Shown piece after piece: positions 19,549 to 60,207 of a stretch of 64,000 nucleotides of DNA. The DNA is from Phyllobates terribilis (taxonomy: Eukaryota), in contig NW_027362765.1 of NCBI RefSeq assembly GCF_046119375.1, positions 129,580,001 through 129,644,000 of the forward strand, read 5' to 3'. How positions within the stretch are numbered: position 1 is the first letter of the stretch; every line of letters begins with the position of its first letter. The notes beneath the pieces were generated by a model. It was not told the DNA's origin, ran no database searches, and saw only the letters and a list, made by a program, of their open reading frames with translations. Position numbers and translations under genes: made by a program.

Positions 19549-20551
19549 TGTGACACCCCAGGGGTCTGGTTGCCACAGTGATAGAGATATTACGTCTGAG
19601 AGCAGGTGGGAGGTCCTTTGGTCAGGGATCCTGTGCATGCGACACCTCCTGCCCAGTCTTGGGAGGGGAAGGACTTCCCCTATATAAACCCGGGGCTGAG
19701 GCAGAGTTAGGGAGAAAGAAGACAGAACAAGAGTAGAGAAGAGAAGCAGCATAGCAAGAAACATCAGGAGCTCTGTGGGGAGCAGTGTTACAAGGAGTCA
19801 GGGGCTGGCAGCTACAGAGCTCGCCCTGACTGAGAAGATTTCTTACCGGACCCGGAGTCCGAGGCTGTGGGGACTAACTCCTACCCAGCAGCAGAAACCG
19901 TCCGGCAGAGGATTTCAGGTCCTCTGGCCCAGAAGCCCGAAGGCACGGTCACACGCGTGGGACCAGCACCGCCATCGTGGAGCGGAAGCCATTAGAAGGC
20001 CCCGAGTCACCGGCCATACGGGTGAGCACCACACGGTACACTCAGGGACGTGGGCTACTTATTCCCGCCTCTAGCAAGGTAGCCAGAAGAGTACAGTTAG
20101 TTGGGAAGGCCTACAACTCCGCCTGGCCAGGGGAGATCCCATCTGCTCAAGGACTGACCAGGCCCCTATCACTAGCAAGTACTCCGGGAGGGTCTATCTT
20201 TGTCACCAGTAAAGACCCTGAACTACACCGCACCGTTTCTGAGTGGTTCCTGCTACCCCCATCATCCACGTCGGCTGCCCTGAGGCCATACCCCTCCCGT
20301 TGGGGGTTATACCATCCACGCTGCACCATCCTTCCACCGGCCTCAGTGGTCTGCCCTGCAGCGGCAGCTCCATAGCTGCATTCAACGGGTGGCGTAGTCA
20401 CCAACCATCTACTGCTAGTACATCGCCGCTCAGTTTGACTCCCTGGGCGCGGACCGGGTCGCCGCCACGAGACTACAACCCTCAAGAGATCCGGCTCCGG
20501 GTAAGCTCCCGCGTGCGCAACGCAGCGCGACACAGGCCCAGGGGCGCGTCA
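19549..20551 (+). repeat. Gypsy 5' LTR (1003 bp, TG..CA)
   Basis: Direct repeat of 26433-27416. TATATAAA at 19681; AGTAAA at 20208. Confidence 0.93.
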
Positions 20552-20555
20552 ACTT

Positions 20556-20573
20556 TGGCGTAGTCGGCAGGAT
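20556..20573 (+). promoter_or_regulatory. Primer-binding site complementary to tRNA-Ser
   Basis: TGGCGTAGTCGGCAGGAT is the reverse complement of the vertebrate tRNA-Ser 3' end (..ATCCTGCCGACTACG-CCA); it lies 4 nt after the LTR. Confidence 0.92.
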
Positions 20574-20990
20574 TTCGTGCCCGCAACCACCGGGTACTGC
20601 GTGCCTGAAAGAGACTTTTCAAACTTACCTGTGGTGAAGATTCCCGCCATCCGGCGCCATCTTTAGCCTTCTTCCCGCCATCGGTGAAGTTTCCCGCCAT
20701 CCGGCGCCATCTTCTGCCTTCTTCCCGCCATCCGTGGAGTTTTCCCGCCATTGGACGCCATCTTGAGGACGCCGCGCGGGAAGAAGAGGGGCGTGGACTC
20801 CGAAAGCGCGCGAGAACTGAAGCCCCGCCTCACGTCCGGACGTTGCGTAAGGTCCTGGAAGGAGCCCAGCAGACGCCGACGTCACAGGAGCGCGACGGAA
20901 GGTCCTCAACCCTGACGATCCACTGCGGAGCCGCGGCCTACGGAAGAGGATCATCGCAAGGTAGGTCACGGTCCACTAGGGGGGAGGAAG

Positions 20991-21971
20991 ATGTCGGATA
21001 CGGAGGAGAGCTTCACTGCCTCAACCCCCGCCAGCGCTACCGCTGCTGCAGTTATGCCCTTCACCATGCCCTATATCCCGGGAGCAGCTTGGCTACCCCA
21101 GTACTCAGGGGAGTCACATACCCTGCATGACTTTAGAGAAAAGCTGGATAGCCTCTTCCAGGTGTACCCCCTCACAGAAGAGCAAAAAGTGAGCATCCTG
21201 GTGGCCCAACTAACCGGGGCAGCCAAAAGGGAAGTAAAATCCTGGCCACCTGGGAGGAAGACTGTCGCAGGGATACTAACCCGGCTGAAGGACACCTTTG
21301 ATACCCGCACCTCAGCCGAGATTAAGCTTAGATTCTATGGGTGCAAGCAGCGAGCGCATGAGAGTATAAGGGACTATGCACTAAACCTACAAGAGGCCCT
21401 GAGGGCCATAAAGCAGACCGACCCTGATGGGGTGGGAAACGAGGACAGGCTGTTGACTGAACAATTTATAGAGGGTTTATATTGCAATGCCCACCGAACC
21501 CAGTTGCGGGCAATGGCCTTACAGGATCCCCATCTGGACTTTGCACAGTTCAAGGACAGAGCCATCCGGGTGCTCCGAGAACCGGCACCGGGTGGCGTTG
21601 TGACCCACAGGCGCCCAGCTATCACTTACCACCAGGAGGCGGCGCCCTTGTCGGCAGGGCCTGTGGGAGCTGATGCGCAGGCTTTGGACAATGACCCGGC
21701 TCCAGACCTACGCCATCAGGTCCAAGAGCTAGCTAAGAGCGTTGCTGCGCTAACCCGAACTGTGCAGTCTTTACAGGTTTCCACCCCAGGGAAGATCCAG
21801 CTGGCATCCGGACCGGAGGACATCCCGTGGCGTCGACCAAGGAGGACCCCACCGGCCAGAGGAAGACCCAGTGACCGATACAGCGAGGACGGACGACCCA
21901 TCTGCCGCCGCTGCAATCAACCCGGACATATGGAAAGGTACTGTTCTTTAAACGGGCACAACCTGGGGTAG
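20991..21971 (+). CDS. gag: Gypsy Gag (326 aa)
   Basis: Capsid-like region (PQYSGE..LTGAAKREV..KQRAHESIRDY..FIEGL) and CX2CX4HX4C knuckle CRRCNQPGHMERYC. Confidence 0.93.
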   Translation: MSDTEESFTASTPASATAAAVMPFTMPYIPGAAWLPQYSGESHTLHDFREKLDSLFQVYPLTEEQKVSILVAQLTGAAKREVKSWPPGRKTVAGILTRLKDTFDTRTSAEIKLRFYGCKQRAHESIRDYALNLQEALRAIKQTDPDGVGNEDRLLTEQFIEGLYCNAHRTQLRAMALQDPHLDFAQFKDRAIRVLREPAPGGVVTHRRPAITYHQEAAPLSAGPVGADAQALDNDPAPDLRHQVQELAKSVAALTRTVQSLQVSTPGKIQLASGPEDIPWRRPRRTPPARGRPSDRYSEDGRPICRRCNQPGHMERYCSLNGHNLG

Positions 21972-24900
21972 AGGGCCAACCCCCAGGAAAAAGATCACCA
22001 GGCCCATCGAACTGGCGCGACAGATATGTGGGAGGACGTCCAGTCTTGCCTGTGGTACTGGATGGCATTCCCATGAGTGCCCTACTGGACACCGGGTCAC
22101 AGGTCACCACTATCCCGTACGTGCTCTTTAAGCAGTACTGGAATGACTCGGATATTACCCGCTACCCTGACGACGACTTGAGTATCATCGCCAGCAATGG
22201 CCAGCCCGTGCCACAGATCGGATTTAAAGAGGTGACCATCAAAATCGGTAGAGTCGAACTGGCAGCACAGGGACTGATCATTGTAGACATTGACAAACAT
22301 GAGAGCCACCCAAAAATAACTCTAGGAACTAATGTAATTGAGAATTGTCTTGCAGAGGTGATTTTCCTTCTACAGCAGGTTGCCAAGAACGCCAGCTCCG
22401 GCGAGCAGCGAGTGCTCCAGAAAGAGATCCGGGCACTGATGCGACGGCAACAGGTGGAACTCTCCGGCGGTGAGATTGGTAGCGTAAGAATGTGTGACCC
22501 TTTTCCTATTGCCATGCCCCCAAAAAGCGAAATGATGATTTGGTGCCGGGCAGCTATTGGTCTGAGAGGTAGAGATTACCAGGCAATGGTAGAACCAGTT
22601 TACTCAGACAGTAGGCCCACCATTTTGACAGCACGGGGGGTGGTCAATGTACGCCATGGGAGGGTGCCCGTTCGCATAATCAATATCGGGGAGAGGGAAG
22701 TGTACCTGCCCCGGTATGCCACGCTAGCAAAATTATATACCATCAACCAAAACTCTATACAGTCTGTGGAACCCTTGCCTCCATCTCACCCGGAGGAAGG
22801 TAACGGCTCTAAGAAAGTAATGGAGGATTGGTGTCAGCAACTACACTTGGGAACTGACTCCACTCCCTCCCACCAGAAACAGGGAGTCTACCGGGTGGTT
22901 CAAGAGTATGAGAGAGTGTTTAGTAAACACCCGTTAGACTTCAGGCGAGTCAAGGGGGTAGAACACCGCATCCCCACGGGAGATCATCCTCCCATAAAAG
23001 AGAGGTATCGACCCGTACCCCCTGCACATTACCAACACGCCAAGGGGATGCTTAGAGACATGAAGGAGGCTGGGGTAATCCGGGATAGCTGTAGCCCCTG
23101 GGCAGCCCCGCTAGTTTTAGTCAAAAAGAAAGACAACACCATGAGGATGTGTGTAGATTACCGGAAAATCAACCGTATCACACACAAGGATGCGTACCCC
23201 TTACCAAGGATAGAGGAGTCATTGGCTGCTTTAAGATCTGCTAACTTCTTCTCTACCTTGGATCTCACTAGCGGGTACTGGCAGGTTCCTGTAGCAGAGG
23301 CGGACCGGGAGAAGACCGCATTCACCACCCCGATGGGACTTAGTGAGTTCACCTGCATGCCGTTCGGACTCTGCAACGCCCCAGGAACCTTCCAACGATT
23401 AATGGAGTGCTGTCTGGGCCACAGAAACTTCGAGACGGTCCTGTTGTACCTGGACGATGTCATCGTATACTCCAAAACTTATGAGGACCACCTGAAACAC
23501 CTGGCGGAGGTGTTCGAAGCTCTGGCGAGTTACGGCCTAAAGGTGAAACCCTCCAAGTGTCACCTCCTGAAACCAAAGGTGCAGTACCTGGGACACGTGG
23601 TGAGCGCTGACGGAGTGGCTCCCGACCCCGATAAGATCACCGCAATTAAGGGATGGCCAAGCCCCTCCAGCGTAAAAGAAGTGCGGCAGTTCCTCGGGTT
23701 GGTAGGCTACTACCGAAGGTTTATTCCCGGTTTCACCAAAAAGGCAGCGCCTATGCAGGACCTCCTGATAGGCCAGTCCCGGAAGGCCAAGAACCAGAAG
23801 CCGCCCTTCAAATGGGAAGAGCTAGAAGAAGAGTCCTTCCGCCAGCTGAAGATGGCCCTCACGGGGGATGAAATCTTGGCGTACCCGGATTATAGCCAGC
23901 CCTTCATCCTCTACACCGACGCCAGTAACATCGGGCTAGGAGCCGTACTGTCCCAGATCCAGCAGGGGAAAGAACGAGTAATCGCCTACGCCAGCCGAAA
24001 ACTGCGACCCACCGAAAGGAACCCCGAGAATTATAGCTCATTTAAGCTAGAGTTCCTGGCCGTAGTATGGGCAGTCACTGAGCGCTTTAAGCATTACCTT
24101 GCTTCTTCCCGGTTCACCGTGTACACGGATAACAACCCGTTGACACACCTGGACACGGCAAGACTCGGTGCCCTGGAGCAGAGGTGGATGGCCCGTCTGT
24201 CCAACTACGAGTTCATAATCAAATACCGGGCAGGGCGCTCCAATACTAACGCGGACGCCCTGTCCAGGATGCCCAACCTGCCAGACGAAGGAGAAGATCC
24301 GGAGGGACTGGAAGAAATTGAACTCCCTGCGTTCCACCGTCATGGGACTATCCAGTATTCCCACCGGGTAAGGAGTAAGCAGGCTGCTACGTTGAACCCC
24401 TTACCTCACTACAACTGGGCGGAAACGCAAGACAGCGACCCTGCCGTCCGACTGGTGAAGGAGATGCTGACTCGGCCGGAGGCTCGCCTTGAACCAGACG
24501 CTCCGGAGGAAGCCAAACAACTATGGGCAGAGAAGAGTCGACTGTTCCTTTACAAAGGGAAGTTGTGCCGCAGAATGGTTAACTTCCGGACGCATGAATT
24601 ACTCTGGCAAGTAGTGGTGCCACGAAGAGACGCAGCCATGGTGATGGAGGCATACCACGACGGAGCTGGACACTTCGGGTGGAAGAAGCTGGAGTTCCTG
24701 CTGCGCGAGCGATTCCACTGGGTAGGCATGAGGGGAACCATTGAGAAGTGGTGCAGAGACTGTGGCCCGTGCAACCTGAGAAGGAAGGACCGCGCCAGCC
24801 AGAAGACTCCCCTGCAGTCCATCGTCACCCGGCAACCGTTGGAACTGGTAGCCTTGGATCATGTAAAACTGACCCCAAGCAGAAGTGGCTACGTCTACGC

Positions 24901-26083
24901 GTTAACCATCGTGGATCATTACTCCCGGTTTCTGGTTGTCGTCCCCGTCAAGGACTTAACGGCTCAAACAGCAGCTAGAGCCTTCCAGCAGCACTTTTGC
25001 CGTCCACACGGGTACCCGGACCAAGTGCTGACGGACCAGGGACCTGCCTTTGAAGCGGAGGTCTTCCAGGAATTCTGCAATCTGTATGGCTGCCGGAAGA
25101 TAAGGACGACACCCTACCATCCGCAGACTAATGGACTTTGTGAAAAAATGAACCAGGTGGTAATGGATCTTCTAAAAACATTGCCCCTGGAAGAACGCAG
25201 TCTGTGGCCTGAAAAGTTGCCCGATCTGGTGGACCTATACAACCACATCCCGGTAGGTTCCACCAACTGTACCCCGGCTTACCTAATGAGGGCAAGACCT
25301 GGTAAGTTACCTGTTGACCTGGAAATGGGAGTCCTGACACCCGAGGACACTTCACCAGAAACAGACTGGGACACGGAGAGGCAGCAGCAGTACCGGAGAG
25401 TACAGGAGAGCGTGGAGCGAAGTCTCTGTCAGGCTAGGGAAAGACAAGAGAAAACTTACAACCAGTATGCTCCCGCTGTTCCCCTGGTACCCGGAGAGCA
25501 GGTCTTGAAGAGGAAGAGACGGCTCCACAAGTTGGACGACCAGTGGGAGAAGGACCCGTACACCGTACTGCCCTCAAGCCACGAAAACCCGAAGGTCTGT
25601 ACCATCAGTAAAGACGGAGGGGAAACCACAGCCATTGTATCCCGGGACCACCTGAAGAAGTGTCCCGAACAACTGAGGAACCCTGAAGAGGAACAAGAAG
25701 ACCATCGACCCGTAGAGGAAAGGGAAGATATGGTTAGTACCGTGCTCGGGGACTTCCCTCGGTCTTGGACTCAAGTCAATGGTGCAGTTGTGGTACCCGT
25801 ACTCACCTTCCTCCAACCATCATCCCAAGAACCTACGGAGCAACCGGTAGAGCTGGAAGAACAGCCGGTCCAGGAGGCAGAAGACTCTACACAAGCAGAC
25901 CAGGAAAATCAACCCTCTGCTTATAGTGAGCATGCCATACCCCTAGTGAGCCAGAGGGCCCATGGACAGCTGCCCAGTTTACCCTTGGCAGCTCCTACAC
26001 CCTGTAGTTCAGGGCCAGACAGTCAGCTCCGTAGGTCCACTAGGGCCACTAGAGGCCAGCTACCCGCACGTTGGAGGATCTAA
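21947..26083 (+). CDS. pol: Gypsy Pol, expressed by -1 frameshift from gag (ORF track 22028-26083, 1351 aa)
   Basis: Protease LDTGS, RT YLDD, RNase H YTDAS..EFLAV..TDNNPL, integrase HHCC plus D,D,E (ALDHV, TDQG, LCEKMN). The -1 frame is open from slippery TTTAAAC at 21947. Confidence 0.95.
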   Translation, partial: FKRAQPGVEGQPPGKRSPGPSNWRDRYVGGRPVLPVVLDGIPMSALLDTGSQVTTIPYVLFKQYWNDSDITRYPDDDLSIIASNGQPVPQIGFKEVTIKIGRVELAAQGLIIVDIDKHESHPKITLGTNVIENCLAEVIFLLQQVAKNASSGEQRVLQKEIRALMRRQQVELSGGEIGSVRMCDPFPIAMPPKSEMMIWCRAAIGLRGRDYQAMVEPVYSDSRPTILTARGVVNVRHGRVPVRIINIGEREVYLPRYATLAKLYTINQNSIQSVEPLPPSHPEEGNGSKKVMEDWCQQLHLGTDSTPSHQKQGVYRVVQEYERVFSKHPLDFRRVKGVEHRIPTGDHPPIKERYRPVPPAHYQHAKGMLRDMKEAGVIRDSCSPWAAPLVLVKKKDNTMRMCVDYRKINRITHKDAYPLPRIEESLAALRSANFFSTLDLTSGYWQVPVAEADREKTAFTTPMGLSEFTCMPFGLCNAPGTFQRLMECCLGHRNFETVLLYLDDVIVYSKTYEDHLKHLAEVFEALASYGLKVKPSKCHLLKPKVQYLGHVVSADGVAPDPDKITAIKGWPSPSSVKEVRQFLGLVGYYRRFIPGFTKKAAPMQDLLIGQSRKAKNQKPPFKWEELEEESFRQLKMALTGDEILAYPDYSQPFILYTDASNIGLGAVLSQIQQGKERVIAYASRKLRPTERNPENYSSFKLEFLAVVWAVTERFKHYLASSRFTVYTDNNPLTHLDTARLGALEQRWMARLSNYEFIIKYRAGRSNTNADALSRMPNLPDEGEDPEGLEEIELPAFHRHGTIQYSHRVRSKQAATLNPLPHYNWAETQDSDPAVRLVKEMLTRPEARLEPDAPEEAKQLWAEKSRLFLYKGKLCRRMVNFRTHELLWQVVVPRRDAAMVMEAYHDGAGHFGWKKLEFLLRERFHWVGMRGTIEKWCRDCGPCNLRRKDRASQKTPLQSIVTRQPLELVALDHVKLTPSRSGYVYALTIVDHYSRFLVVVPVKDLTAQTAARAFQQHFCRPHGYPDQVLTDQGPAFEAEVFQEFCNLYGCRKIRTTPYHPQTNGLCEKMNQVVMDLLKTLPLEERSLWPEKLPDLVDLYNHIPVGSTNCTPAYLMRARPGKLPVDLEMGVLTPEDTSPETDWDTERQQQYRRVQESVERSLCQARERQEKTYNQYAPAVPLVPGEQVLKRKRRLHKLDDQWEKDPYTVLPSSHENPKVCTISKDGGETTAIVSRDHLKKCPEQLRNPEEEQEDHRPVEEREDMVSTVLGDFPRSWTQVNGAVVVPVLTFLQPSSQEPTEQPVELEEQPVQEAEDSTQADQENQPSAYSEHAIPLVSQRAHGQLPSLPLAAPTPCSSGPDSQLRRSTRATRGQLPARWRI

Positions 26084-26423
26084 ATGTTTAAGCTATCTTA
26101 TAATGTTTACTTGTTTATAGTTGCTTGTGTATAATTTTGTGTTTCTAGTTCTTTTTAGGAGTCCTTGGTGGATTTACCGGGAATCCTTGTACATAGTTGG
26201 AGCGTAACCCAGGATGGACTAAAGACTGTTAAGGACTCGGGGCAGGACAGGCCCCTACCTGGTTACGTCTCCCTGTTTTGGTGAAATGGACACCTTGCTT
26301 TTCAAAACTGCACCCGGTTGCGGACACGCCGTAACCATCTTATGTGTTTTTCTTATTGTATTGTTATACCTTGTTATGTTTTTCTAAAAAAATATGTTTA
26401 GTCCCAGAGTACTAAATTTCACT

Positions 26424-26432
26424 AGGGGGGAA
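26424..26432 (+). promoter_or_regulatory. Polypurine tract
   Basis: AGGGGGGAA immediately before the TGTGAC start of the 3' LTR. Confidence 0.85.
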
Positions 26433-27416
26433 TGTGACACCCCAGGGGTCTGGTTGCCACAGTGATAGAGATATTACATCTGAGAGCAGGTGGGAGGTCC
26501 TTTGGTCAGGGATCCTGTGCATGCGACACCTCCTGCCCAGTCTTGGGAGGGGAAGGACTTCCCCTATATAAACCCGGGGCTGAGGCAGAGTTAGGGAGAA
26601 AGAAGACAGAACAAGAGTAGAGAAGAGAAGCAGCATAGCAAGAAACATCAGGAGCTCTGTGGGGAGCAGTGTTACAACGAGTCAGGGGCTGGCAGCTACA
26701 GAGCTCGCCCTGACTGAGAAGATTTCTTACCGGACCCGGAGTCCGAGGCTGTGGGGACTAACTCCTACCCAGCAGCAGAAACCGTCCGGCAGAGGATTTC
26801 AGGTCCTCTGGCCCAGAAGCCCGAAGGCACGGTCACACGCGTGGGACCAGCACCGCCATCGTGGAGCGGAAGCCATTAGAAGGCCCCGAGTCACCGGCCA
26901 TACGGGTGAGCACCACACGGTACACTCAGGGACGTGGGCTACTTATTCCCGCCTCTAGCAAGGTAGCCAGAAGAGTACAGTTAGTTGGGAAGGCCTACAA
27001 CTCCGCCTGGCCAGGGGAGATCCCATCTGCTCAAGGACTGACCAGGCCCCTATCACTAGCAAGTACTCCGGGAGGGTCTATCTTTGTCACCAGTAAAGAC
27101 CCTGAACTACACCGCACCGTCTCTGAGTGGTTCCTGCTACCCCCATCATCCACGTCGGCTGCCCTGAGGCCATACCCCTCCCGTTGGGGGTTATACCATC
27201 CACGCTGCACCATCCTTCCACCGGCCTCAGTGGTCTGCCCTGCAGCGGCAGCTCCATAGCTGCATTCAACGGGTGGCGTAGTCACCAACCATCTACTGCT
27301 AGTACATCGCAGCTCAGTTTGACTCCCTGGGCGCGGACCGGGTCGCCGCCACGAGACTACAACCCTCAAGAGATCCGGCTCCGGGTAAGCTCCCGCGTGC
27401 GCAACGCAGCACGACA
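26433..27416 (+). repeat. Gypsy 3' LTR (984 bp, lacking the terminal ~19 bp)
   Basis: Colinear with the 5' LTR without indels; five substitutions seen by eye. Confidence 0.93.
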
Positions 27417-30020
27417 CAGGCATCGCAAGACCTTAGGTATTCATGGTTATAACCACTAGCAGCTAGCTAACTGACTATCAGTGGACGTAACCATGGATAC
27501 CTAAGGTCCTGCAATGCCTGCACATAAGAAAAGACATAGCGAATCAAAAATACTATACATTTCTATTTGTAGGTATTTGCTAATATTATTACACCTACTA
27601 CATATTGGGATAAGATCTTGGAGATGGGAATACCCCTTTAATCTCATAAAGGTGTCCCTGCTGTGTACTGTGTTATGGCCGTGTCTGACCGTACAGGGAC
27701 ATGGTCTGATCATACCACAGCTCCTGGGCAGGGGAGGAAGGAAAAGAGTATACTGATAGAATCATTTGTGATCCCTGCTATCCTTTCTTTGAAGTAAAAC
27801 ATTGTTAAAAATAGGCAGTGTAATGTTTTACCTCACAGAAAAAATCCTGTAATTCCCGGCTGTAATGTCTGTATACTCTTTTGCGTCCTCCCCTGCCCAG
27901 GAGCTGTGGTATGATCAGACCATGTTCCTGCGCGGTCAGACACAGCCATTACACAGTACACAGCAGGGGCACATTTATAAGATTATCTCAGCACAGGAAC
28001 ATTTTATTCACACACATCCAATTGTGGAAGTTATTATTATTCCAAGATGTATTGATTAAAATAAACTTTTGTCCATGGGGAAAATCCCTTTAAGTGTGGA
28101 TTATATGCATTTTTCATGAGTTTCTGCCGTGGAAACGCATGTGCGTTTTCAGCATGCGGATTTTCCGCATCTAATGCCAGTCTATGGGGAAAATTCCCAC
28201 AGAAATATCCACGTACCCACAAGAGAAATCAACATTCTGTGGATATGAAACGCACCGCAGGACAGTTAATCCTGAGTAAAAAAAAATAAAAAAAAATAGC
28301 AGTGGGCTGGAGATTTCTATAAATCTCATCCACTGTGCTGGATAAGACGCGGTGTTTTGACGCAGCAAAAATACGCAGCGTCAAAAACGCTCCAAAAGCT
28401 CATTGGGAGAAGGTCGCCTAAGGCCATCTGCACACGTTCAGTATCTTACATCAGTATTTGTAAGCCAAAATCAGGAGTGGAACAATCAGAGGAAAAGTAT
28501 AATAGAAACACGTCACTTCTGTATTTATCACCCACTCCTGGTTTTGGCTTATAAATACTAACCAAATACTCAATGTGTGAACATGGCCTAAAGCCCCCGT
28601 CTCACATAGCGAGATCGCTGCTGAGTCACGGTTTTGGTGACGCAACAGCAACCTCACCAGCGATGTCGCTATGTGTGACACTTTGCAACGATCAGGCCCC
28701 TGCTGTGAGGTCGCTGATCGCTGCAAAATCTCCTGGACCATTTTTTGGTCGTTGCCCTCCCGCTGGTCAGCACACATCGCTGTGTGTGACCAGCGGGAGC
28801 AGCGATCAGGCTGGTAACTATGGTAAACATCGGGTTACTAGGGGCACACGCGCACTTAGTAACCCGCTGTTTATCATGGTTACGAGCCTGCTAAAGTGAG
28901 CGCTCACCGTAGCAGAGTGGTAACCATGATAAACAGCGGGTTACTAGGGGCACGTGTGCCCCTAGTAACCCGATGTTTATTATGGTTACCAGCCTGCTCC
29001 TGCTTCAGCAGGCTGGCAACCAGGAGCTGGACATCGTGGAAAGATTCTTTCCACGATGTCGCTGCTCCCCTGATCGTTGGTGAGCCTGCCTGTTTGACAG
29101 CTCACCAGCGACCACATAGCGACGCAGCAATGATCCCTGACAGGTCGTATCGTTGTCTGGATCGTTGCAGCGTCGCTAAGTGTGACGGGGCCTTAAGTCT
29201 TTGTTCCCACACACCATCTCAACTGCTCGCTCCTGCAGAGGGATTTACTATTGTGAAGGGATGGGGGGATATTTTGCCGCACTTTCCATTACAGGGTGAG
29301 ATTTCGTATGTACATTTACAGCATAAATTGAGATGTTACATTTTGCCTCAGATATATTTCGCAGCATGTTGTTGGCACTGTAAGTCGCAGCAGAGTTTGC
29401 TGCAGTGGATGCGCTGTGTTTTCGTAGCATGGACACTTAGGTCATCTGCTGTGGACTTTCTGCAGCATAAATGCCTCTGTGGATTATGTAGCCTCCTACG
29501 CTGCACGTCACATTGTCGCAAGGGGTAAAAGCTAAAAGATCATTGTCCGATATTGTTACAATCCACAATTTCCAGTACACATGCATAAAATAGAATGAAT
29601 GTAGGTATGTCCGGTTTATTGTTCTGAATAGGCTCAGTTCTGCATGTCTCATTCACAAGCGTAGGACAAGGGCAGAACCTGCTGCAGAAAACCCACTCCA
29701 TGTCAATATATGGTGGTAGACAATCAATGTTCAATTAGTCATAGAGACACTTGTGATTGTAGCGCTAGTTACAATGTACCAGAGTTGTGCCTGATAATGG
29801 CAGCTTCTGAGCTACTCTCACCTCATTTATAATTGTAGGAAACTGGAGCTGAACTTTCTGGTCGTAAACCAGCTTAGCGCTGAGGTTCACTGACTGGTTC
29901 TCAGATTATTCATTCTGCAGCCAGTGCAACATAAGAGCTAGCCAAAAATATATGCATTTATATCGTTTTTTTCCCCCCCGAAAGCTTTCGTATGCAAAAA
30001 GGGTATTCTACAATCCTTAA

Positions 30021-30573
30021 AGGGTTTTCCCACTAGGAAAAGTTGGTTTTAATCAATAGATCTTGGAATAATAATAAGTTCCACAAATTGATGTGTTTAA
30101 ATATAATGTTCCTGTGCCGAGATAATCTTATATATGTGTCCCTGCTGTGTACTGTGTAATGGCTGTGTCTGACCGTGCAGGACCATGGTCTGATCATACC
30201 ACATCTCCTGGCCAGGGCAGGAAGCAAAAGAGTATACAGATATTACAGCATGGGATCACAGCTGATTCTTTTTGTGAGGCAAAACATTTCCCTGCCTGAT
30301 TTTAACCAATGTTTTATTTCAAAGAAAGAATCAGCTGTGATCCCCTGCTGTCCTGTCTGTATACTCTTGCTTCCTCCCCTGCCCAGGAGATGTGGTATGA
30401 TCAGACCATGTCCCTGTACGGTCAGACACAGCCATTACACAGTACACAGCAGGGGCACATTTATAAGATTATCTCAGCACAGGAACATTTTTTGTAAACA
30501 CATCCAATTGTGGGAATTATTATTATTCCAAGATCTATTGATTAAAATTACTTTTGTTTGTGAGAAAATCCCT
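30021..30573. mobile_element. T2/Kolobok-type palindromic MITE (uninterrupted)
   Basis: TTAA at 30017-20 and 30574-77; AGGG..CCCT ends; long inverted arms. Confidence 0.8.
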
Positions 30574-30577
30574 TTAA

Positions 30578-35197: not shown

Positions 35198-35203
35198 TTT
35201 ATT
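35198..35203 (-). terminator. LSM14B: Candidate LSM14B polyadenylation signal
   Basis: AATAAA on the minus strand ~950 nt after the stop codon, at the end of repeat-free UTR-like sequence. Confidence 0.45.
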
Positions 35204-38595: not shown

Positions 38596-38755
38596 CAATA
38601 CACTGCAAAGCTGTATTTCATACTGCAGCCTCAGCTGAAATTTTGAAGCATTTACTACTAGTATATCATAGGAGGGAGGAATATGGAGCCAACTGCCAAG
38701 AACTCAAATAAAACCCCTCTTTTGCAACAGATGTTACAGGAGTTTGACTGTCCAC

Positions 38756-40183: not shown

Positions 40184-40255
40184 CTGACCTCCGTCTTTGG
40201 GGTCGTCTATTCTCATCATTGATCATATTCTGTGTCGGTGCAGTCTGAGGTGGTA
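40184..40255 (-). CDS. LSM14B: LSM14B exon
   Basis: (V)PPQTAPTQNMINDENRRPQRRRS; 72 nt; AG/GTAAAA. Confidence 0.92.
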
Positions 40256-40506: not shown

Positions 40507-40677
40507 CATTCATAGGTGCAGGCTGTCCCGCTGCCTGGCCCTGTCTGTTCCCCCGTTGGCTCACAGGTGGTCCCTTTGCCGGCTGCAGCTTCTTCTGTGT
40601 CATATTCTCCATTGGACCAGTCTGGACAGCTTGTTCCACCATAGGGCTTTTCTTTACTGGGATGGATGGGAAACCAG
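40507..40677 (-). CDS. LSM14B: LSM14B exon
   Basis: (A)[56 protein letters not shown]; AG/GTAAAT. Confidence 0.93.
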
Positions 40678-43621
40678 CTGCAGGGAGAAAAGGGGAACCC
40701 ATTAGTTGGAGTTTGCAGGCAGAACTGACATGGGAGCCCCCAGCAATGCTCAATGTCTACAGGGAGGCCATAACAGTTATAATGAAGGCACCAGAAAGAA
40801 GCCGAGCTGCCGGCAATAAAAGCCAACCAGGTATGAAGCCACCGACAAAGCTGAACTATCCCATCAGACCCCAGTTTAGTTGTTAAAGGGGTTTTCCAGC
40901 CTTAGAAAGACATGGCTGCTTTCTTACAGAAACTGCACCTAGTCTCTCCACAGGTCATGAGTTCTACTGCAGCTCCAATTCCATTGAAATAAAAGCCGCA
41001 ATACCACTCACAACCTGGGGACCAGAGTGGTGCTGTTTATTGAAGGATGCAACCAGGTTATTCTAATAAGCTGGGTAGTACCTAATAAACGCAGTTAAAG
41101 GGGTATACTGGTTTAAACACGTTATCCATCCACAGGATAGCAGTAATAACAGCTATATAGGTGAGGGTCCAACCACTAGTACCTCCATGGGTCAGCAAAG
41201 TAGCACTGCCATTCCCCCCACACCTCTAGTCTGGAGGGGCAGTTGTACTGAAACACCAATAAAAGTCTATGGATCTGACAGATGGCAAAGAGCTGTACTT
41301 AATTCTGAATGGAGCAGAGGAGTGAACAATTGACCATGGCCCTAATAAAAAGGGACAAGTCCCATTCTGGAGAGGGTCCCAGGATAACTTGTTACAGCAA
41401 GAATACCCTTCCAACCAAGTGGAATAATAGGCTTCTGTAAGGGATTGTACCTTGTCTGATCACATACACTGTGCCTTCATTATAACACGATGCTACAAAC
41501 ATGCAAACACCACAAACTACAATGGAGACTGTTGGATGCAAAAACATCAAGCTAAACATCAGCTCTGCCGCAGGGAATGTGCATCTGAAGATGAACCCAT
41601 TGTTACACGTCATTTTTTTTATCCAATTCTGTCCAAAATGTTGCACTTGTGATTTATTAGTATCTGACCTTCATTAAGAGCCTCAAAAAAAACCTTATAC
41701 CATCAAAGGATAATTCTAGGCACCTGTGGTGACCACTGGAGGGAGCAGTTTGTGTGCAGATTTAGTAGGCTGCCATGTAACCTGGTACAATGATGCAGAG
41801 GTTTTGGAGCTTTAACAGTAAAGTAGTGCTTCATCCCCTTCAGAAATACAAGAACCCTGTGATGGGTGCTGTAGTATAGCTGAACCCAACATAGTGAATT
41901 AAAGGGGCTGCTGCCCAGTTACTGTTGGGTGTCTTCAAGGAAAGTTGGGGATGAATCCACCATGTTCCAAATCCTAGTGTGAATTGGATATAACCTGGTT
42001 TTACAGGTGAACCATACATTGCAGTGGATTGACTACTATAGACTGAACCAATAGGATTTAATTTGGATCTCAGCAGCCTTTTTCAGGTGCAGAGGTTGGC
42101 GGGCTGCAGGGACAAGTCTGAGTGTCAATTAGACAAAAATGTAATTACTAATTAATGGTTGGTGTAACTAAGACAGGACACACCTGTGTGATTATACAGT
42201 CCCATCCTCATCCAGTGTTTGGCACATTGACTATAGAAACCAGTGCAATTCATACTGGTCATAGAACTAATAGAAGCATGTGATGGGGTATGCTACTTCT
42301 AGCCACAGGCATTTGAGGGTATTAATTTTGGCACTGCAGATCACATTCATTTAAGAGACTGACCTCTTTGCAAAGGTATTTGCTTTCTAAATGCTATAAA
42401 GCAGTTCCCTGGTCTTCAGTATAAAGTTACCACTTACAGAATCACCTAGTTAGCTGCACAATCTTATCTCCTGACAGCCCTCTCCTCAATGTTAGTGATA
42501 GCAGCAGGGAGCAGTTATATCAGGGGAGGGGGAAGGATATCAAGGTTTTAGTGACAGCAGCTCACTGATTGTGGATCAGGAGATCATCATCATGAACTGA
42601 AGATATGGAAATCACTCCAGGAACAGAGGCTGATACACATAAGCGAGTGAATTCACTGCATTCTGGACAGAGCTCCCCCAGCCACTGCAGAGACATCCAC
42701 GAGAGAAGAATCTGAGACTAGGATGAGGCTGCATCAGGGGGACTAAGAATTAATGGAAATTGCAGACTTGTGTCAATAGGAGTCTACAGCCAGTACAGGA
42801 CTGGTCTCCGGCTTCTGGCCTGTTGATTCCTGGAGGATTCACATGGTCAGCTGTCTGAATGAACCATTAGACAAGGCTTCCCTCAGTAGTAGAGCTAGAG
42901 ACTTACAGCAGCTCTGTATGGGCCAATATCAGGATCCAAATGGGGGAATGGCCCATTATATTCATATGCCATGCACAACACCTTACATAAGTAGTGAAGC
43001 ATGTCAGATCATCAGAAGCTTCTGGAAAGTTATTACTGCACCCGAGATCAGTACCTCAATGCTTGACTCTTAAAAGGGTTGTCTAGTTTAGAAAACAATA
43101 AAATTGATTAATTCTGGGTTAATAGGGGGAACAGTTCGTCTCACCCTGGGAGAGCTAATGGGTTTACACATACCAGCTACTTAGATAAATGGACATGTTG
43201 TAATGCCCAATATAACCTGTGGAGGCACTGCAGGGATACTAAACTCTTGCCAGGGTTTCCTACAGTTGCAGCTGTTTTCAGGGGGCATTTTTGCTTACCC
43301 ATATGCTGATCACAAGTGGAGGCTGTACAAAATAACCCATGTGATACAAGACCTTCTCTAGCCAACACTAACTTGGCCACCACTCAGCATACTCATGGGC
43401 TAGCGTCTTACTGGCCGTTCTTTTTTCTCTAATGCGTCCTTGAAAGTAATCACATTCTCCTGTCTGGCTGCTGCAGTAACTCAGCACCGATCCGACACTG
43501 GACAACACCACAATCACAATGTTAGTAGACGTGGAACAAAAGCGACTATTCTACCCATGAATAGAACTAAAGACAATAGCATGCGAATAGGAGAATAGGA
43601 GATACGTGCCAGCAATGTTAC

Positions 43622-50854: not shown

Positions 50855-50944
50855 GGTGCCGGCTTTTCTGCAACTCCCTGCTGGTCCGCACCTTTCCACT
50901 TGAGAAACCCCCCCTGGACTGCCAGGCGCCGCCCACTGTCTCCG

Positions 50945-52510: not shown

Positions 52511-53869
52511 TTAAAGGGAACCTGACAGCTGATTTGTGTTGCAATAACTATGGGCAGCATGAATCAGAGTCCGGCTCCATGATTTCAGCCAAGTAGGTTT
52601 TATTCTGAAACACTGCAAACATACATTTAAAAGCCGGCCGAGAATTATGCTATATGACTAGTCCAAGAGGTCAGTCCTCCGCTTCTTCTCTTGGACTAGT
52701 CACCTGAATGGCTCGGCCGGCTTTTTAAGGTGTGTCTTTCTCTGAAACGCAGCAGCACTTCCTAGTATTCCTGACTGAACTGTGCCAGTGTCTGATACAT
52801 GCTGTCAGCGGTTCGGGTTCATTTCACTTCAAATGCTCCAACTAGGAGTAGATGTAGATTTGCTGCAAAATTGCTCCATTTCTGGCTGTAAAGGGAACCT
52901 GTTATCAGGATTTTATATCCCAAACTAATAACATGTGGGTAAACCCCCACTATCAGTATTTGGTCAGTATTGGGTTAGTATTTTTTCTCAGGAGTGGGAG
53001 CCAAAACCAGGTGAGGAACAATCAGAGAAAAGGTATAATAGAAACAAGTCACCAATTCTGGATTTATCACCCACTCCTGGTTTTGGCTCCCACTCCTGAG
53101 AAAAAATACTGACCAAATACTGATAGTGGGGCCATGGCCTCATGCTGAATAAATCCTCACCTTTCTTGTAGAATCCTTTTTGCCGTTTTAGGCTACGTTC
53201 TCACAATGAGTTTTTGGTGCATTTTTGACGCTGCATATTTTCCCTGAGAATAAAAAAAAGCAGCGTCGTACAGTTCCAGCACAGTGGATGGATTTCTAGA
53301 AACCTCCTGCCCACTGGGCTTCCTTTTTACTCAGCTAAAACTGACCCGCGGTGCTTGTCTCATATCCACTGCATGACAATTACTCTTGCGGGTACTCTTG
53401 AGTTTTCTGTGGAGATTTTCCATTAGACTTACATTAGATGCGGAAAATCCACAGGAAAAAAACTCAAGTAAACCACACATGACTGTATCAATAAAGTTTT
53501 ATCAAAGCCAAATACCAGGAAGTATCAAAAACAAAGCAGCTTTATTTAAAACATGACACACCAACAAGACACAGCTTTAAATCTGATGCAAATGAGTTGC
53601 AAGCACAGCGGGGTGGGACAATGCCCCTGCCTCTCTCCTTATTGCCCACCCACCTCCTACCAGTGACCTCCCCAAGGTCTCTCACCAGCTCCGCCATTGA
53701 CTTGGGGTGGGGCATGTGCAGATTAATTGTCCGGCTTTCATCTTTCTGATATGAGGAAAATCCACAATACACCAAATTATTAGGAGGTGTGAAATTCTTA
53801 AGAAATTTACAGCAATTCGCTCTGTTATATTTGTGTATGAAACTGTAAGAAACACATACTTGTCGCTTG

Positions 53870-55806
53870 TGTAGCGCCCCGAGGGCTCGGTTGCTACAGG
53901 GGTATTGCACCTCAAACCAGAGGTGTGATATTCCACTCCCGGGTAAGGATGGAGTGTGGACCAGGGCTCAGTTAGCTGCACACACACACACACACCCCAT
54001 ATCCGGGGGACAGCTCGACGGTGCTCCCAGCTGCGGGCACAACTGACCATGTCCCTGGTTGGAGTGGGGAGGGGGGAGGGAACCCAGTGGTGTAGGAGCA
54101 GAAAGGGGACGGTTCCTGGAGCACAGGAATGAGCTCATTGGGTGCAGGTCACCTGAGCTCAGACACAGAGAAGTAGATAAAAGGTGGGAGCCATCTCAAG
54201 TCGAGGAGTGGAGTGGAGAGAAGTAGTTCAGTCAGAGCTGACAGGGAGCCGCGGCTCAGCCTGAGCTCAGCTCCACGAGGCAGGCCTAGAGAGAAGGCCA
54301 GGGCCAGAGAGGAGAAGAGAAGAAGGAGAAGGAAGGAAGGAGAAGAGACAGAGGAGTGGAAGGGCTCCAGAAACAAGAAGGCAGAAGGGACTCTAAGAGT
54401 GCAGAACGGTCAGCAACCGTTGCATACCCCATTATACCGGGTAAAAGGGTCAGGCTGTGAAAAGGTACCGGATCCCTAAGTTGGTGGAGGCGAATCTACC
54501 CTCAGCCAAGAACCGGAGGTTGTGACCATTTATTGGTGCGACCCCCCCCTGTAATGCAGCAACGTGCTTGCATTACGGTAATGGTCTAGGATGTGTTTTA
54601 CTTGACCATATACCTTTCCCTCAGCTGACTGGTCACATGACTGTGACATCATACAGGTCCTGTATGCACAGTAAAGGTCTGTACACATGACTGGGACAGC
54701 ACACAGGACCTATACACACAGCTGACTGATCACATGACTGTGACATCAGAAAGGTCCTGTCAGTATGTGGGTGTGTGTGCACAGGATATATAAACCCTGG
54801 TAATTTGAGACAGGTGTGTTCGGTGTGAGGCCTGTGCTCCGTGTGTGTGGGACACCGTTTGTGAGAGGCCGAGAGTGAAGCCTGGCAGCCTGAAAGGCTG
54901 AGCCTGGATCCTGTGCGTGGATGTCAGTGGCCTTTGAGGGAGAGCCGGCTTGGTGTTGAACCCTGAAAGGCGCAGGCTGGATGTCAAGTGTGGAAGACAT
55001 ACCAGTAGTCTACGAGGGGTCGACGGCTAGAGACCCCCACCTGGGAAAGCCGCAAAGCCACAGTGGTGGCGGAATAAACGGACTGTAGCAGCCAAAACCC
55101 GCTAAAGGTAAAAACGCTGCGTTATAAGGACATTTATGTTGTTGCCTAGCCGAGGGCTATAACGGGAGCCAAGTGGACATATCTGTCGCTGGAAAGGCTC
55201 CCGAATTGTGATGTGTGTAATATGCCGGTCTGCCACTTGAGAAGCTCCCGGAGGTGATAGGTGTAAACATGCCGGGCGTATACTAAGATGGACTGTGTGA
55301 TTAGCGGTTTATGACGAAATAATAAACTGCATTGTGAATTATCGGAAGGACATTGCTTATGTGCCTTAATTGACCCGGGGGTTGACCGAGCTCCTCACCT
55401 GGTGGACGCAGCACGGCTCGGGCAGTCCTTGCTGACAGAAGTGACTTGGATAACAACTGTGAGTAAAAGACCCTGGACTGCATCATTGGCCTCTGTGTGA
55501 TTTCTGCTGCGCCTGCACCATCACCCCCAGCATCCACTTGTACTGCCCTGAGGCTACACTCTTCCCGTGGGGAGTTATCCTACCCCAGTGCTGCACACCA
55601 ACACCAGCCTCAGCGGTCTGCCTCGCAGCGGCGGTTATCCCTGACCGCAATCCACGGGTGGCGTAGTCGGACATTCAAAACACTGATAAATAGACTGACA
55701 CAATTTGGTCTGACCACCCTGAGCCACGGGATCGGGTTGCCACTACTACCCCCAGCATCGTACAGAAGCCCGGTTCCGGGTATCCCACGGCCCAGGGGGC
55801 GAATCA
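53870..55806 (+). repeat. 5' LTR (~1.94 kb) of the CSD element
   Basis: Starts TGTAGCGCCCC and ends CCCAGGGGGCGAATCA, 5 nt before the PBS. TATATAAA near 54786; AATAAA at 55321; AGTAAA at 55462. Confidence 0.8.
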
Positions 55807-55818
55807 GCTTTTGGTGTA

Positions 55819-57376
55819 CAGTCATGGCCAAAAGTTTTGAGAATGACACCAAAATAATATTTTCACATGATCTGCTGGCCTCTGGTTTTTATTAGTGTTT
55901 GTCTGATGTTTATATCACATACAGAAATACAATTGCAATCATATTATGAGTACCAATAGGTTATATTGACAGTTAGAATGAGTTAATGCAGCAAGTCAAT
56001 ATTTGCAGTGTTGCCCCTTCTTCTTCAAGACCTCTGTAATTCTCCCTGGCATGCTCTCAATCAACTTTTGGACCAAATTCTGACTGATAGCAGTCCATTC
56101 TTGCATAATCAATGCTTGCATTTTGCCAGAATTAGTTGGTTTTTGTTTGTCCACCCGTCTCTTGATCATTGACCACAAGTTCTCAATGGGATTAAGATCT
56201 GGGGAGTTTCCAGGCCATGGACCCAAAATCTCTATGTTTTGTTCCATGAGCCATTTAGTTATCACCTTTGCTTTATGGCTAGGTGCTCCATCATGCTGGA
56301 AAAGGCATTGTTGGGCGCCAGGCTGCTCTTGGACAGTTGGGAGAAGTTGCTCTTGGAGGACATTCTGGTACCATTCTTTATTCATGGCTGTGTTTTTAGG
56401 AAAGACTGTGAGTGAGCCGATTCCCTTGGCTGAGAAGCAACCCCACACATGAATGGTTTCAGGATGCTTTACAGTTGGCAAGACTGGTGGTGGCGCTCAC
56501 CTCTTCTTCTCCGAATAAGCTGTTTTCCAGATGTCCCAAACAATCGAAAAGGGGATTCATCAGAGAAAATGACTTTGCCCCAGTCCTCAGCAGTCCACTC
56601 CCTGTACCTTTTGCAGAATATCAGTCGGTCCCTGATGTTTTTTCTGGAGAGAGTGGCTTCTTTGCTGCCCTTCTTGAAACCAGCCCTTGCTCAAAGAGTC
56701 TCCGCCTCACAGTGCGTGCAGAAGCTCTCACACCAGCCTGCTGCCATTCCTGAGCAAGCTCGGCACTGCTGGTAGTCCGATCCCGCAGCTGAAACAGTTT
56801 TAAGATACGGTCCTGGCGCTTGCTGGTCTTTCTTGGGCGCCCTGGAGCCTTTTTGACAACAATGGAAGCTCTCTCCTTGAAGTTCTTGATGATGCGATAG
56901 ATTGTTGACTGAGGTGCAATCTTTGTAGCTGCGATACTCTTCCCTGTTACACCATTTTTGTGCAGTGCAATGATGGCTGCACGTGTTTCTTTAGAGATAA
57001 CCATGGTTAACTGAAGAGAAACAATGATACCAAGAACCAGCCTCCTTTTAAAGTGTCCAGTGATGTCATTCTTACTTAATCATGACTGATCGCCAGCCCT
57101 GTCCTCATCAACACCCACACCTGTGTTAATGCATCAATCACTAAAACGATGTTAGCTGCTCCTTTTAAGGCAGGACTGCAATGGTGTTGAAATGTGTTTT
57201 GGGGGTTAAAGTTCATTTTCTGGGCAAATATTGACTTTGCAAGTACAGTAATTGCTGTTAAGCTGATCACTCTTTGACATTCAGGAGTATATGCAAATTG
57301 CCATTACAAAAAATGAAGCAGTAAACTTTGGAAAAATTACTATTTGTCTCATTCTCAATACTTTTGGCCATGACTG
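55819..57376 (-). mobile_element. Tc1/mariner DNA transposon, DD35E spacing (Traveler-like), inserted in the PBS
   Basis: TIRs CAGTCATGGCCAAAAGT(T/A)TTGAGAATGA, with TA duplicated (55817-18, 57377-78). Confidence 0.93.
55996..57004 (-). pseudogene. Tc1-family transposase pseudogene (DD35E)
   Basis: MVISKETRAAII.. with two frameshifts (~56650, ~56480). Motifs FSDESPF, QHDGAPSH, SPDLNPIE with 35 residues between D and E. Confidence 0.88.
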
Positions 57377-57734
57377 TAGTCGGCAGGATCGTGACCAACC
57401 CGCCACAAACGGGTATTTCGTGCCTGAAAAGAGACTGTTTCACTGTATTGAATGTGGCGCCCGCCTCAGCAGAACGGACGCCATCATGTGCGCGCCAAAA
57501 GACCACAGGAAGCCACCGCCCATCGTGGGCCAGGTCCCAGAAAGGCGCCAAAGACGGAGCCCACCCCCAACAGCCATGAGTGTGGCTGTAGAGATGTCCA
57601 TCAATGTGGGGGGGCTGCCCCTGAGAGTGATTGTCAGCAGGTTGCCCCGGGACCACCCCCAACAGGGACAGAAAGAGAAGAAAACCAGGGGGCAGGGTGT
57701 GGTTTGGATCAGTCTCACCAGATCACACCCGGAG

Positions 57735-59012
57735 ATGGAGAGGAGCACCAACTCCAACACCCTGGCAAGCGGCCTGCTGCAGGCCGAGGCGTCCCCGTAC
57801 AGCCTCACGGAGCTGATGGCTCAGCTCCCCGCAGAAGACCCTGAATTCCTGCGGACAGCACTGGAGGAGCTGGATCGGAGGATGGTCCGGGCGCAGAGGG
57901 AAGTCATCGCCGGATGGAGGGAGGAGATGGCTCGGCGGGTCGCGACCCGGCAGCAAGAGACGCTGCCAGCACCCGGCAGTGTGCCTGCTCCCGAGGACAG
58001 AGAGAGGAGACCGGAGGGCGAGTATTACGCTGCCGCGGAGGCAGGTAAGGCGGACACCCCTGCCCCGGGTCCTGACGCAGTAAGCTTACCCCTGGATCCT
58101 GCCGCTGAGCCAGAAGTCCCGGGAGCCTCTGCAGCTTCCACGCTCCCGCCGCATACACCTGGGCCTCAAGCCGCGAACTCCGCCGCTGAACCACGCCCCA
58201 CGTCGTGCCCCCTGACGCCGGGTGCGGTCGGAAGCGGCCCGCTCCAGGCCCGGTCGCAAGCCCTGACCTCCCCAGGCGCCTCCCAACCCCGTGTGCCCCT
58301 GGTCCCGAAGCTACCACCCCTTGGGACTGACCTGTACAGCCAGCTCGCCGGACCCGATGGAGAGCCGGTCCCTGTACCAGAGGGATGGGTTCACCCCAGT
58401 CAGCGGAAAAACCTGGCCGCAGAGGCCCCGCTTGCTCCGCTCTTGCCCCTACCACAGCCAGTCGTCGTCTCTCAACTCCCGGAGGAAGAGGTCCAGATAG
58501 GATGGGACCAGAGTGGGGAGGATGTGATGGGGTTTGCGCAGGAGACGCGGGTGGCCGCAGCCCGCAGGCAGGAGGTCTGTGAGCAGCTTGAAAAGGAGGA
58601 GCGGGCGCGGTGCCGGAAGAGGGAGCAGCTGCAGGCCCGGAGCGCGGAGGAGAAGACACGAACCCGCCAAAACCCTCAGGCTGCACGTGGTCTTAAAACT
58701 GCTGGGACCGTGGTAAGATTCCATCAAGAAAAAGGGTGGGGGTTTATCCGGGACTCTGCCACAGCCACAGACCTCCATGTTGACAGGAGGGATGTGGAGG
58801 GTCACCTGCCAGCGGGTCTCCCGAAGCGGAAGTTGTTCCCGGGAGATCGGGTAATATACACCCGACATCGAGGCCTGAAAGGGTGATATGCCCTCAATGT
58901 CCAGAGGGTGGAGGAAGAGTACTACCGTGAGCACTACTACCCAGATGACCCGGACGGGTCTGGAGAGTATGGCGAGGAGGAAGAGCGTGCACAAGGAGGA
59001 CACAGTTATTAA
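57735..59012 (+). CDS. Retroelement ORF: helical N-terminus, Pro/Ala-rich linker, basic coiled segment, cold-shock domain (58704-58910), acidic Tyr-rich tail; one in-frame TGA at 58884-86
   Basis: GTVVRFHQEKGWGFIRDSATATDLHVDRRDV..LFPGDRVIYTRHRGLKG*YALNVQRV follows the CSD pattern (CspA GIVKWFNADKGFGFI..DVFVH..L.EGQKVSF..G.KGP.A.NV). The start codon is uncertain; the frame is open from 57291. Confidence 0.75.
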
Positions 59013-59776
59013 AATGTGAGTGCACTGTAGATAGTTGCCCATTAGGGTACAGAAGAGAAAGTTCACCCCGGATGGGGACTGTTGCCTGTATGTCGTTTGA
59101 ATAACCGGCTGAGGACTGGGAGCAGCCAACTTAGTGAACTATCCGGCCGAGGACTGGGAGCGGTCAACTTTGTAAATATTTGCACTTCTTAAAGTGCCCC
59201 CTACTGGTTTTATAAGAGACTACAGCAACAACTGACCTCAGAACAAAAACCCGTTAGAGGTGGCTGAAGACGAGGTCCAGCAGCTGGATCAGCTACGCCC
59301 TGCAGCCACCCCAGGGCCTTCGTTGAGGGTTTACGAACGGGTACCTCATGTTTGTGTTTACAAGTTTGCATTTTATAAAAAGATGGACACCTGGTCGCAA
59401 AGCGCACTGTGACCAGTTAACAAAAGTTTTACATGAAGAATGTTTATAAGAAAAATGTTTTATATGTGACAAATGTGATTATAAAAGTGAAAAGAGTTTT
59501 ATAATGTTTTATATATGTGAAGAAAGTCTTATAATAATTGCTGAAAGAGAAAATGTGCCAGTAACGTTAAAAGAGAAGAATTGCCTCCCATAAAGGGATG
59601 AGTAATAATGGTTTACCCCCCCGCTAAACCTGCTAGGAAGGCACCATATAGGATAGCGGGAAGCGGAGGCCAACGCTTACCCGACACGGTCCGCGGTAGC
59701 CGGACAGAAGTCAGGACACTGGTCGGGCACGAGAGGCCAGAGAAAGGACAGAAGGGGGTCCTGTGCCATACTCCTG

Positions 59777-60207
59777 AATTGCCTGGGGGTTGACCGAGCT
59801 CCTCACCTGGTGGACGCTGCACGGCTCGGGCAGTCCTTGCTGACAGAAGTGACTTGGATAACAACTGTGAGTAAAAGACCCTGGACTGCATCATTGGCCT
59901 CTGTGTGATTTCTACTGCGCTTGCACCATCACCTCCAGCATCCACTTGTACTGCCCTGAGGCTACACTCTTCCCGTGGGGAGTTATCCTACCCCTGTGCT
60001 GCACACCAACACCAGCCTCAGTGGTCTGCCTTGCAGCGGCGGTTATCCCTGACCGCAATCCACGGGTGGCGTAGTCGGACATTCAAAACACTAATAAATA
60101 GACTGCCACAATTTGGTCTGACCACCCTGAGCCACGGGATCGGGTTGCCACTACTACCCCCAGCATCGTACAGAAGCCCGATACCCCATGGCCCAGGGGG
60201 CGAGTCA
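59777..60207 (+). repeat. 3' LTR remnant of the CSD element (last ~430 bp only)
   Basis: About 97% similar by eye to 55368-55806; ends CCCAGGGGGCGAGTCA followed by the TSD. Confidence 0.85.

Follow-up and report, generated by a model that had tools for sequence, protein, structure and literature searches.

A cold-shock-domain retrotransposon family of the frog Phyllobates terribilis as a probable satellite of a Ty3/Gypsy clade with which it appears to exchange U5 regions

How can a retrotransposon family that encodes neither gag nor pol be copied and integrated? This question is raised by a window of 64,000 nucleotides from the 10.6 Gb genome of the frog Phyllobates terribilis (contig NW_027362765.1, positions 129,580,001 to 129,644,000), in which we analyzed two elements with long terminal repeats (LTRs). 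One of them (19549-27420) is an autonomous Ty3/Gypsy element with gag followed by protease, reverse transcriptase (RT), RNase H and integrase between LTRs that are 99.5% identical over 984 nt. The other (53870-60207) has decayed and belongs to a high-copy LTR family that lacks both gag and pol and whose single open reading frame (ORF) encodes a cold-shock domain (CSD). In the window copy this frame is interrupted by an in-frame stop (58884-58886) inside the domain, and the remnant of the 3' LTR is 96.6% identical to its own 5' LTR over 435 nt. The original prediction, made from the sequence of the window, had proposed the two as a helper/satellite pair with common packaging, priming and integration signals. 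We find that the CSD family as a whole is very probably dependent in trans on this Gypsy clade, whereas the two window elements are not each other's closest counterparts. The complete picture, which we consider likely, is that the family is copied and integrated by the proteins of the clade, uses particles in common with it, swaps the U5 (unique 5') part of its LTR with it and encodes a predicted RNA-binding protein that would favour the transcript of its own family.

The sequence blocks described for both elements were found at or beside the proposed positions, namely AGTAAA (20208 and 55462), which we take to be the poly(A) signal, and, in the original numbering, block 3 (20277/55545), block 4 (20340/55607), block 5 (20385/55654) and block 8 (20591/57410), and the starts and ends of the LTRs also match the earlier description. 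Rather than separate islands, the blocks form a single continuous alignment of about 350 nt. Comparing Gypsy with CSD element, the terminal 350 nt of the LTR reach z = 36, the leader z = 18 and the first 40 nt of the LTR z = 6.8, with 0 of 200 shuffles as high in each case. The claim that no similarity is evident elsewhere holds for the coding regions (50 of 50 shuffles as high) and has to be softened for U3/R (unique 3' and repeated regions), where a weak purine-rich match was seen (z = 3.4, 4 of 200 shuffles as high). Both elements have the same primer-binding site, presumably complementary to tRNA-Ser, but in the CSD copy of the window it is split by a Tc1-like insertion. The proposed 4-bp target duplications are readable on both sides of the CSD element (CTTG), but the right duplication of the Gypsy element (CAGG) can only be inferred from the other arm of a host palindrome because the 3' LTR is without its last 15 nt. 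The hairpin at the LTR start covaries as claimed (G-C in 19 and A-U in 15 of 34 rows), yet the split follows two lineages and therefore amounts to about one event. A predicted fold of the U5-leader RNA pairs blocks 3, 5 and 8, with 98% of cells paired. Furthermore, a second copy of the first 10–12 nt of the primer site is kept within U5 in both families (20385-20399, 55654-55668), where it might contact the tRNA a second time or pair with the leader.

That the blocks are generic to Gypsy LTRs is rejected by the families at 23–41% RT identity, as these do not carry them. Six of 20 integrase loci belong to the clade of the window Gypsy (RT 91–94%) and all six carry the blocks, which are absent from the six LTR pairs found among the 14 other loci, two of these matching only in an identical primer site, and also from three LTR pairs found among four further Gypsy loci at RT 38–41%. 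Since the tested distant LTR families are without them, the blocks mark the CSD family and this Gypsy clade (pol 77–99% identical to that of the window). Among the loci analyzed were also an unrelated LTR family with an identical primer site (RT 26%; L094, L110) and a Gypsy element with the integrase upstream of the RT (L059:6759-9097, oriented coordinates), an order that we would label Gmr1-like. The window Gypsy may belong to a Barthez/PNMA-related lineage, its gag having a PNMA match under the cut-off (E 1.4e-4).

When the genome was searched with the CSD region, 35,771 first-look candidates were obtained and the best 150 of them scored, and 20 picked copies showed LTRs of about 1.2–1.3 kb, about 2.3 kb between them and one ORF. 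The junction of LTR end and primer site has 49,435 exact matches in the genome and its reversed control none. From these we fetched 100 places spanning the first 19 Mb of one contig, and found a CSD body in 48, a Gypsy body in 50, no assignable body in two and both bodies in none. As pol was found in 0 of the 48 CSD bodies, whose internal part is mostly 1.6–2.9 kb long, and CSD and pol together in 0 of the 100 elements, an autonomous CSD partner, a case raised by the original prediction against itself, was not seen in this sample. Termini and target choice of the two families agree: where both ends could be located, matching 4-bp duplications flank 39 of 43 CSD and 35 of 38 Gypsy elements, and both families share a TG-NNNN-CA target bias, with G before the duplication in 26/39 and 22/35 and C after it in 33/39 and 19/35 cases, respectively. 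Both families are young (median LTR identity 99.75% for CSD and 99.24% for Gypsy elements). The CSD share of 48% (38–58%) corresponds to about 24,000 copies with intact junction (19,000–29,000) or about 1% of the genome, extrapolated from the one 19-Mb sample. With paired TG...CA LTRs, primer site, polypurine tract and target duplication, the family has by its sequence the tested features of a non-autonomous LTR retrotransposon, including an autonomous partner with cis signals that unrelated families lack. A young CSD copy is covered in 30 of 30 bins by contigs of four sequencing runs. These contigs are probably RNA because in three of the four runs a control stretch contains the spliced joint of a host gene, but with thousands of copies such coverage is no proof of element-driven transcription.

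The ORF is open in 33 of 46 elements, with 490–630 aa in the open copies, and judged from substitution ratios it is under purifying selection: between subfamilies, the ratio of non-synonymous to synonymous substitutions (dN/dS) in the CSD is 0.04–0.20 in 10 of 11 estimable pairs, and it is near 0.4–0.5 in the linker. The miniature (TRIM, terminal-repeat retrotransposon in miniature) and large (LARD, large retrotransposon derivative) satellites are non-coding and without maintained coding capacity, and with these numbers the CSD family does not belong to that class. Pfam recognized the CSD above its cut-off in six of six copies, and outside the CSD and one long helix a structure model was not confident (mean predicted local distance difference test, pLDDT, 44). 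The modelled domain adopts a five-strand cold-shock fold and resembles CspA, YBX2 and YB-1 (template modelling score, TM, 0.66–0.86 over the target among the top five matches), with YB-1 as best match by sequence (E 0.07). While sharing their fold, it is only 27–29% identical to these Y-box and cold-shock proteins, lies near the C-terminus behind the long helix and has changed RNP2 residues. From the fold, the protein is predicted to bind RNA or single-stranded nucleic acid. A diverged Gag of the Sabrina_SA, WHAM or 1a11 type is not supported, as we obtained no profile match to the helper Gag (hhalign probability 0.2), no Gag family in Pfam scans of six copies and no capsid among the listed fold matches, the N-terminal model being of low confidence. 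Among 1.84 billion proteins, 538 matched in a profile search; of ten that were looked up, five bear the label Ranitomeya variabilis, R. imitator or Anomaloglossus baeobatrachus, one Bufo bufo, one that of a CspA-family protein and three are without a name. Of database proteins, the closest carry the label Phyllobates terribilis. In several frogs, CSD ORFs are annotated as ordinary host genes.

For the protein, a cis-acting role on the RNA of its own family falls, in our judgement, slightly short of an even chance. Could it benefit the helper as well, for instance by protecting the RNAs of both families against decay or germline silencing? Such a cooperation would help to explain a joint expansion of the two families, which are both young and occur in similar numbers (48 vs 50 of 100). 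The purifying selection would fit, and so would the two Gypsy rows L066 and L068 that fall within a CSD clade of the U5 tree, by which exchange between the families may run both ways. We nevertheless regard cooperation as unlikely: selection on a satellite gene is simplest with a benefit in cis, and other Gypsy families in this genome are young too, and for them no partner of this kind was seen.

The preferred reading, a satellite depending on the clade and exchanging U5 with it, is supported by the U5 region. Over the last 350 nt, the CSD copy of the window is 87.7% identical to an older helper subfamily and 69.6% to that of the window Gypsy, so the window Gypsy is rejected as its specific partner. 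In a tree of 110 U5 rows (without L075, L143 and rows lacking a located 5' start) the two families are interleaved, with 14 label changes of which at least six are forced, and a single CSD clade is rejected by the approximately unbiased (AU) test (p = 1.8e-67, 39-row subset). The satellites L086 and L130 are 94–95% identical to the helper L077 from just 3' of AGTAAA through the whole primer site but satellite-like outside, and the match of L154 to a helper runs from AGTAAA to 66 nt beyond the LTR. The captured U5 is identical in kind in both LTRs of L086 (LTR identity 99.4%) and of L130 (99.2%). In L075, a 5' LTR of Gypsy type (95–100% identity to young copies of that family) meets, at the primer site, a body and 3' LTR of CSD type (91–99.5% identity to young copies), and the whole insertion has CTTA on either side as one target duplication; the chance of such a flank match is 2–4%, as two random duplications agree in 2% and CTTA accounts for 3 of 73. 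L075 would fit a second-strand transfer between molecules. The reverse kind is seen in L143, where CSD-type LTRs enclose a Gypsy leader and gag with GTTG on both flanks. The U5 classes of the helpers track their RT lineages (5 changes, minimum 4; 42 rows, two without RT being dropped), and in the U3 tree of the satellites (52 rows) they appear in order with 5 changes, the minimum, crossing between two helper branches, the direction not being fixed because this tree is midpoint-rooted. Taken together, these patterns indicate that the blocks are exchanged between the families and not merely conserved. The blocks are putative packaging signals, and their similarity appears to be renewed by exchange of the whole U5 and not solely kept as separate motifs.

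A mechanism can be proposed on this basis. The satellite has no replication genes of its own, yet its young and complete insertions carry the primer site, polypurine tract, termini and target pattern of the helper. U5 moves between the families, two of the freshest swaps spanning AGTAAA to the primer site. This would be a first-strand transfer from one co-packaged RNA to another, in which AGTAAA provides the short stretch of homology needed to jump, and a Gypsy 5' LTR on a CSD body would be the matching product of the second-strand transfer. The U5 type changes in order along the U3 tree, and the satellite may follow whichever helper subfamily is active. The ORF, which is kept under purifying selection and is not Gag, could encode an RNA chaperone or coat that stabilizes the RNA of the satellite or secures its entry into helper particles, a step for which we see the chances as evenly balanced. 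The swaps and the chimeric insertion are what strand transfer in mixed particles should yield, and U5 exchange within such particles seems probable to us.

Alternatively, the clade might mobilize the CSD family in trans while the likeness of U5 arises from gene conversion or ectopic recombination at the DNA level among tens of thousands of chromosomal copies. The 49,435 junction matches, the tandem and nested copies and the single discordant-LTR case would allow this, and conversion followed by further transposition could still put a swap in both LTRs. However, the same captured U5 in both LTRs of L086 and L130, the breakpoints at AGTAAA and the primer site, and L075 with one matched duplication and a full non-homologous U3 make this explanation improbable. 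That the CSD family arose by deletion from an autonomous element with gag-pol and CSD that escaped sampling, with U5 common by descent only, is very improbable despite L143 with its CSD-type LTRs around a Gypsy gag, the scoring of the best 150 candidates in the genome searches and a second CSD family without identified helper, as CSD and pol never occur together in the 100 junction elements, none of the 20 picked CSD copies matches the coding DNA of the window Gypsy inside the element, the U3 of the families does not align, and descent alone predicts the one CSD U5 clade that was rejected.

Several points weigh against dependence on this clade with exchange of U5 in mixed particles. In the U5 tree, the CSD subfamily that is both largest and youngest (31 rows) stands as a clade apart, and 30 of its 31 rows are only 75–83% identical to any sampled helper, from which it follows that a close U5 match is not needed for success. 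The discordant-LTR type is one case in 100 (L075), for which gene conversion may be the source, and the 39-row subset of the AU test was picked after the larger tree had been seen. The seven covarying pairs of the U5-leader fold were equalled by 96 of 500 shuffles and the fold is no stabler than shuffles (z –1.2 to +0.7 in four of four sequences). One CSD pair has a dN/dS of 0.67, another is saturated, and the pairs are not independent. The Gypsy clades sampled lie at ≤41% or at ≥~78% identity with none between, and the elements analyzed come from the first 19 Mb of one contig and the 20 picked copies. Finally, we did not find the helper of the second CSD family, which the Gypsy families at RT 38–41% do not match.

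This second CSD-only LTR family was obtained in a search with the Bufo bufo protein, in 18 of 20 loci (L195-L203, L205-L213). It has LTRs of about 1.02 kb, the same primer site and 4-bp duplications, and its CSD is 28–38% identical to that of the first family. Its LTR end occurs 822 times, and 21 of 30 such loci run on into its ORF and 0 of 30 into gag. With the clade of the window Gypsy it has only the primer site in common. Partly similar LTRs that were considered for its helper turned out to be an older subfamily of the same family, and no database relative of its protein was found. More divergent CSD frames without a recognized LTR pair are present in L204:5326-6111 (oriented coordinates) and L214, and tandem arrays with common LTRs (LTR-body-LTR-body-LTR) occur in both CSD families (L038, L045, L203). 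As a tentative generalization, with the chances rather against it, frogs might carry a whole class of CSD satellites, with at least two families here and relatives in other poison frogs and a toad, in which each Y-box-like protein brings its own RNA into the particles of a helper or protects it against silencing. In this view, the main family would move from one Gypsy helper to the next by acquiring their U5 during strand transfer and so contribute to the expansion of a 10-Gb genome.

The features of both elements are collected in Table 1. The Gypsy element is inserted in a palindromic miniature element (19408-19548 and 27417-27660), and several more such elements lie at 27639-30577. The repeat that supplied the foreign segment in the CSD 5' LTR has copies that are sometimes 3.8–4.5 kb apart, a spacing expected of the LTRs of a short element. 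Elsewhere in the window, tandem arrays are present at 4397-7000 (34-nt units) and 36526-38597 (units of about 95 nt). A host gene on the minus strand has two exons (40180-40255 and 40507-40682) whose junction is seen in contigs from three runs; for the larger exon, Pfam scans of two frames found no match.

Table 1: Positions of the features of the Gypsy and CSD elements within the window.
Feature	Position	Strand	Remarks
Gypsy left target duplication (CAGG)	19545-19548	+	target read via other arm of host palindrome
Gypsy 5' LTR	19549-20551	+	TATA-like box 19681, AGTAAA 20208, common U5 segment 20208-20551
Gypsy primer-binding site	20556-20573	+	
Gypsy common leader block	20574-20640	+	3' of primer site
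Gypsy gag	20991-21971	+	CCHC knuckle; weak PNMA and Retrotrans_gag matches, both under cut-off
Gypsy pol	21875-26083	+	1402-aa open frame: protease, RT, RNase H, integrase
Gypsy polypurine tract	26422-26432	+	
Gypsy 3' LTR	26433-27420	+	terminal 15 nt lost between two CAGG words; 27417-27420 also serves as right duplication
CSD left duplication (CTTG)	53866-53869	+	
CSD 5' LTR	53870-55806	+	family norm ~1.2–1.3 kb; common U5 segment 55462-55806
Foreign segment within CSD 5' LTR	54551-55364	+	piece of another repeat family; 4558 first-look candidates
CSD primer-binding site, interrupted	55812-57389	+	Tc1-like insertion 55819-57376, TA duplicated
CSD common leader block	57390-57460	+	
CSD single ORF	57486-59012	+	helix, long disordered linker, long helix, cold-shock domain (~58701-58910), acidic tail
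CSD 3' LTR remnant	59617-60207	+	polypurine tract and first ~680 nt lost; right duplication CTTG 60208-60211

Most of the helper/satellite pairs documented for LTR elements come from plants, and they have usually been inferred from common motifs. Because the genome of P. terribilis keeps the products expected of both strand transfers between two families, co-packaging and helper switching become countable from sequence alone. The conserved non-Gag protein of the satellite points to an undescribed way in which a parasite of a parasite may compete. As it has no transposon domain, the CSD family is likely left unclassified by protein-based classifiers.

Partnerships between an autonomous and a non-autonomous LTR element have reportedly been described for soybean with LTR swapping (Du et al. 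2010) and for Dasheng and RIRE2 in rice (Jiang et al. 2002), and the CSD family and its Gypsy clade would be of the same kind. The present system differs in its frog host, in swaps bounded by AGTAAA and the primer site, and in a satellite with a selected non-Gag gene. Our search of the literature found no LTR satellite encoding a cold-shock domain, Repbase, Dfam and supplements being outside its scope, so that a catalogue entry may exist. Poison-frog genomes are reported to contain abundant Gypsy elements and a large share of unclassified repeats (PMC6278860, PMC12822217, PMC12208295). Frog LTR elements with an ORF and without pol are described in Xenopus with 1a11 and xretpos, where 1a11 encodes a Gag-like protein with tens of ORF copies; the accessible part of that source names no helper and does not mention 'cold', and the likeness is one of description only (PMC4585706). 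Among animals, the Helenus TRIMs have 4-bp duplications and assigned Gypsy helpers (PMC10886601), and an exchange of non-coding regions is reported between partner pararetroviruses (PMC5491270). For the Wilma/Sabrina/WHAM and Angela systems of wheat, a long co-evolution is described, with homology down to essential motifs and helper switches proposed via LTR transfer; some of the wheat satellites also carry unrelated ORFs, which in the accessible text are Gag-Pro, capsid-like or of unknown kind with no cold-shock domain named (PMC9744471). A parallel to the swaps in L086 and L130 comes from the clans of LTR retrotransposons, where the first transfer can be intermolecular and then links the R/U5 of one RNA with the U3 of its co-packaged partner in the same pattern; that recombination is described within one family, whereas here it would connect two families without alignable U3 or coding regions (PMC6894440).

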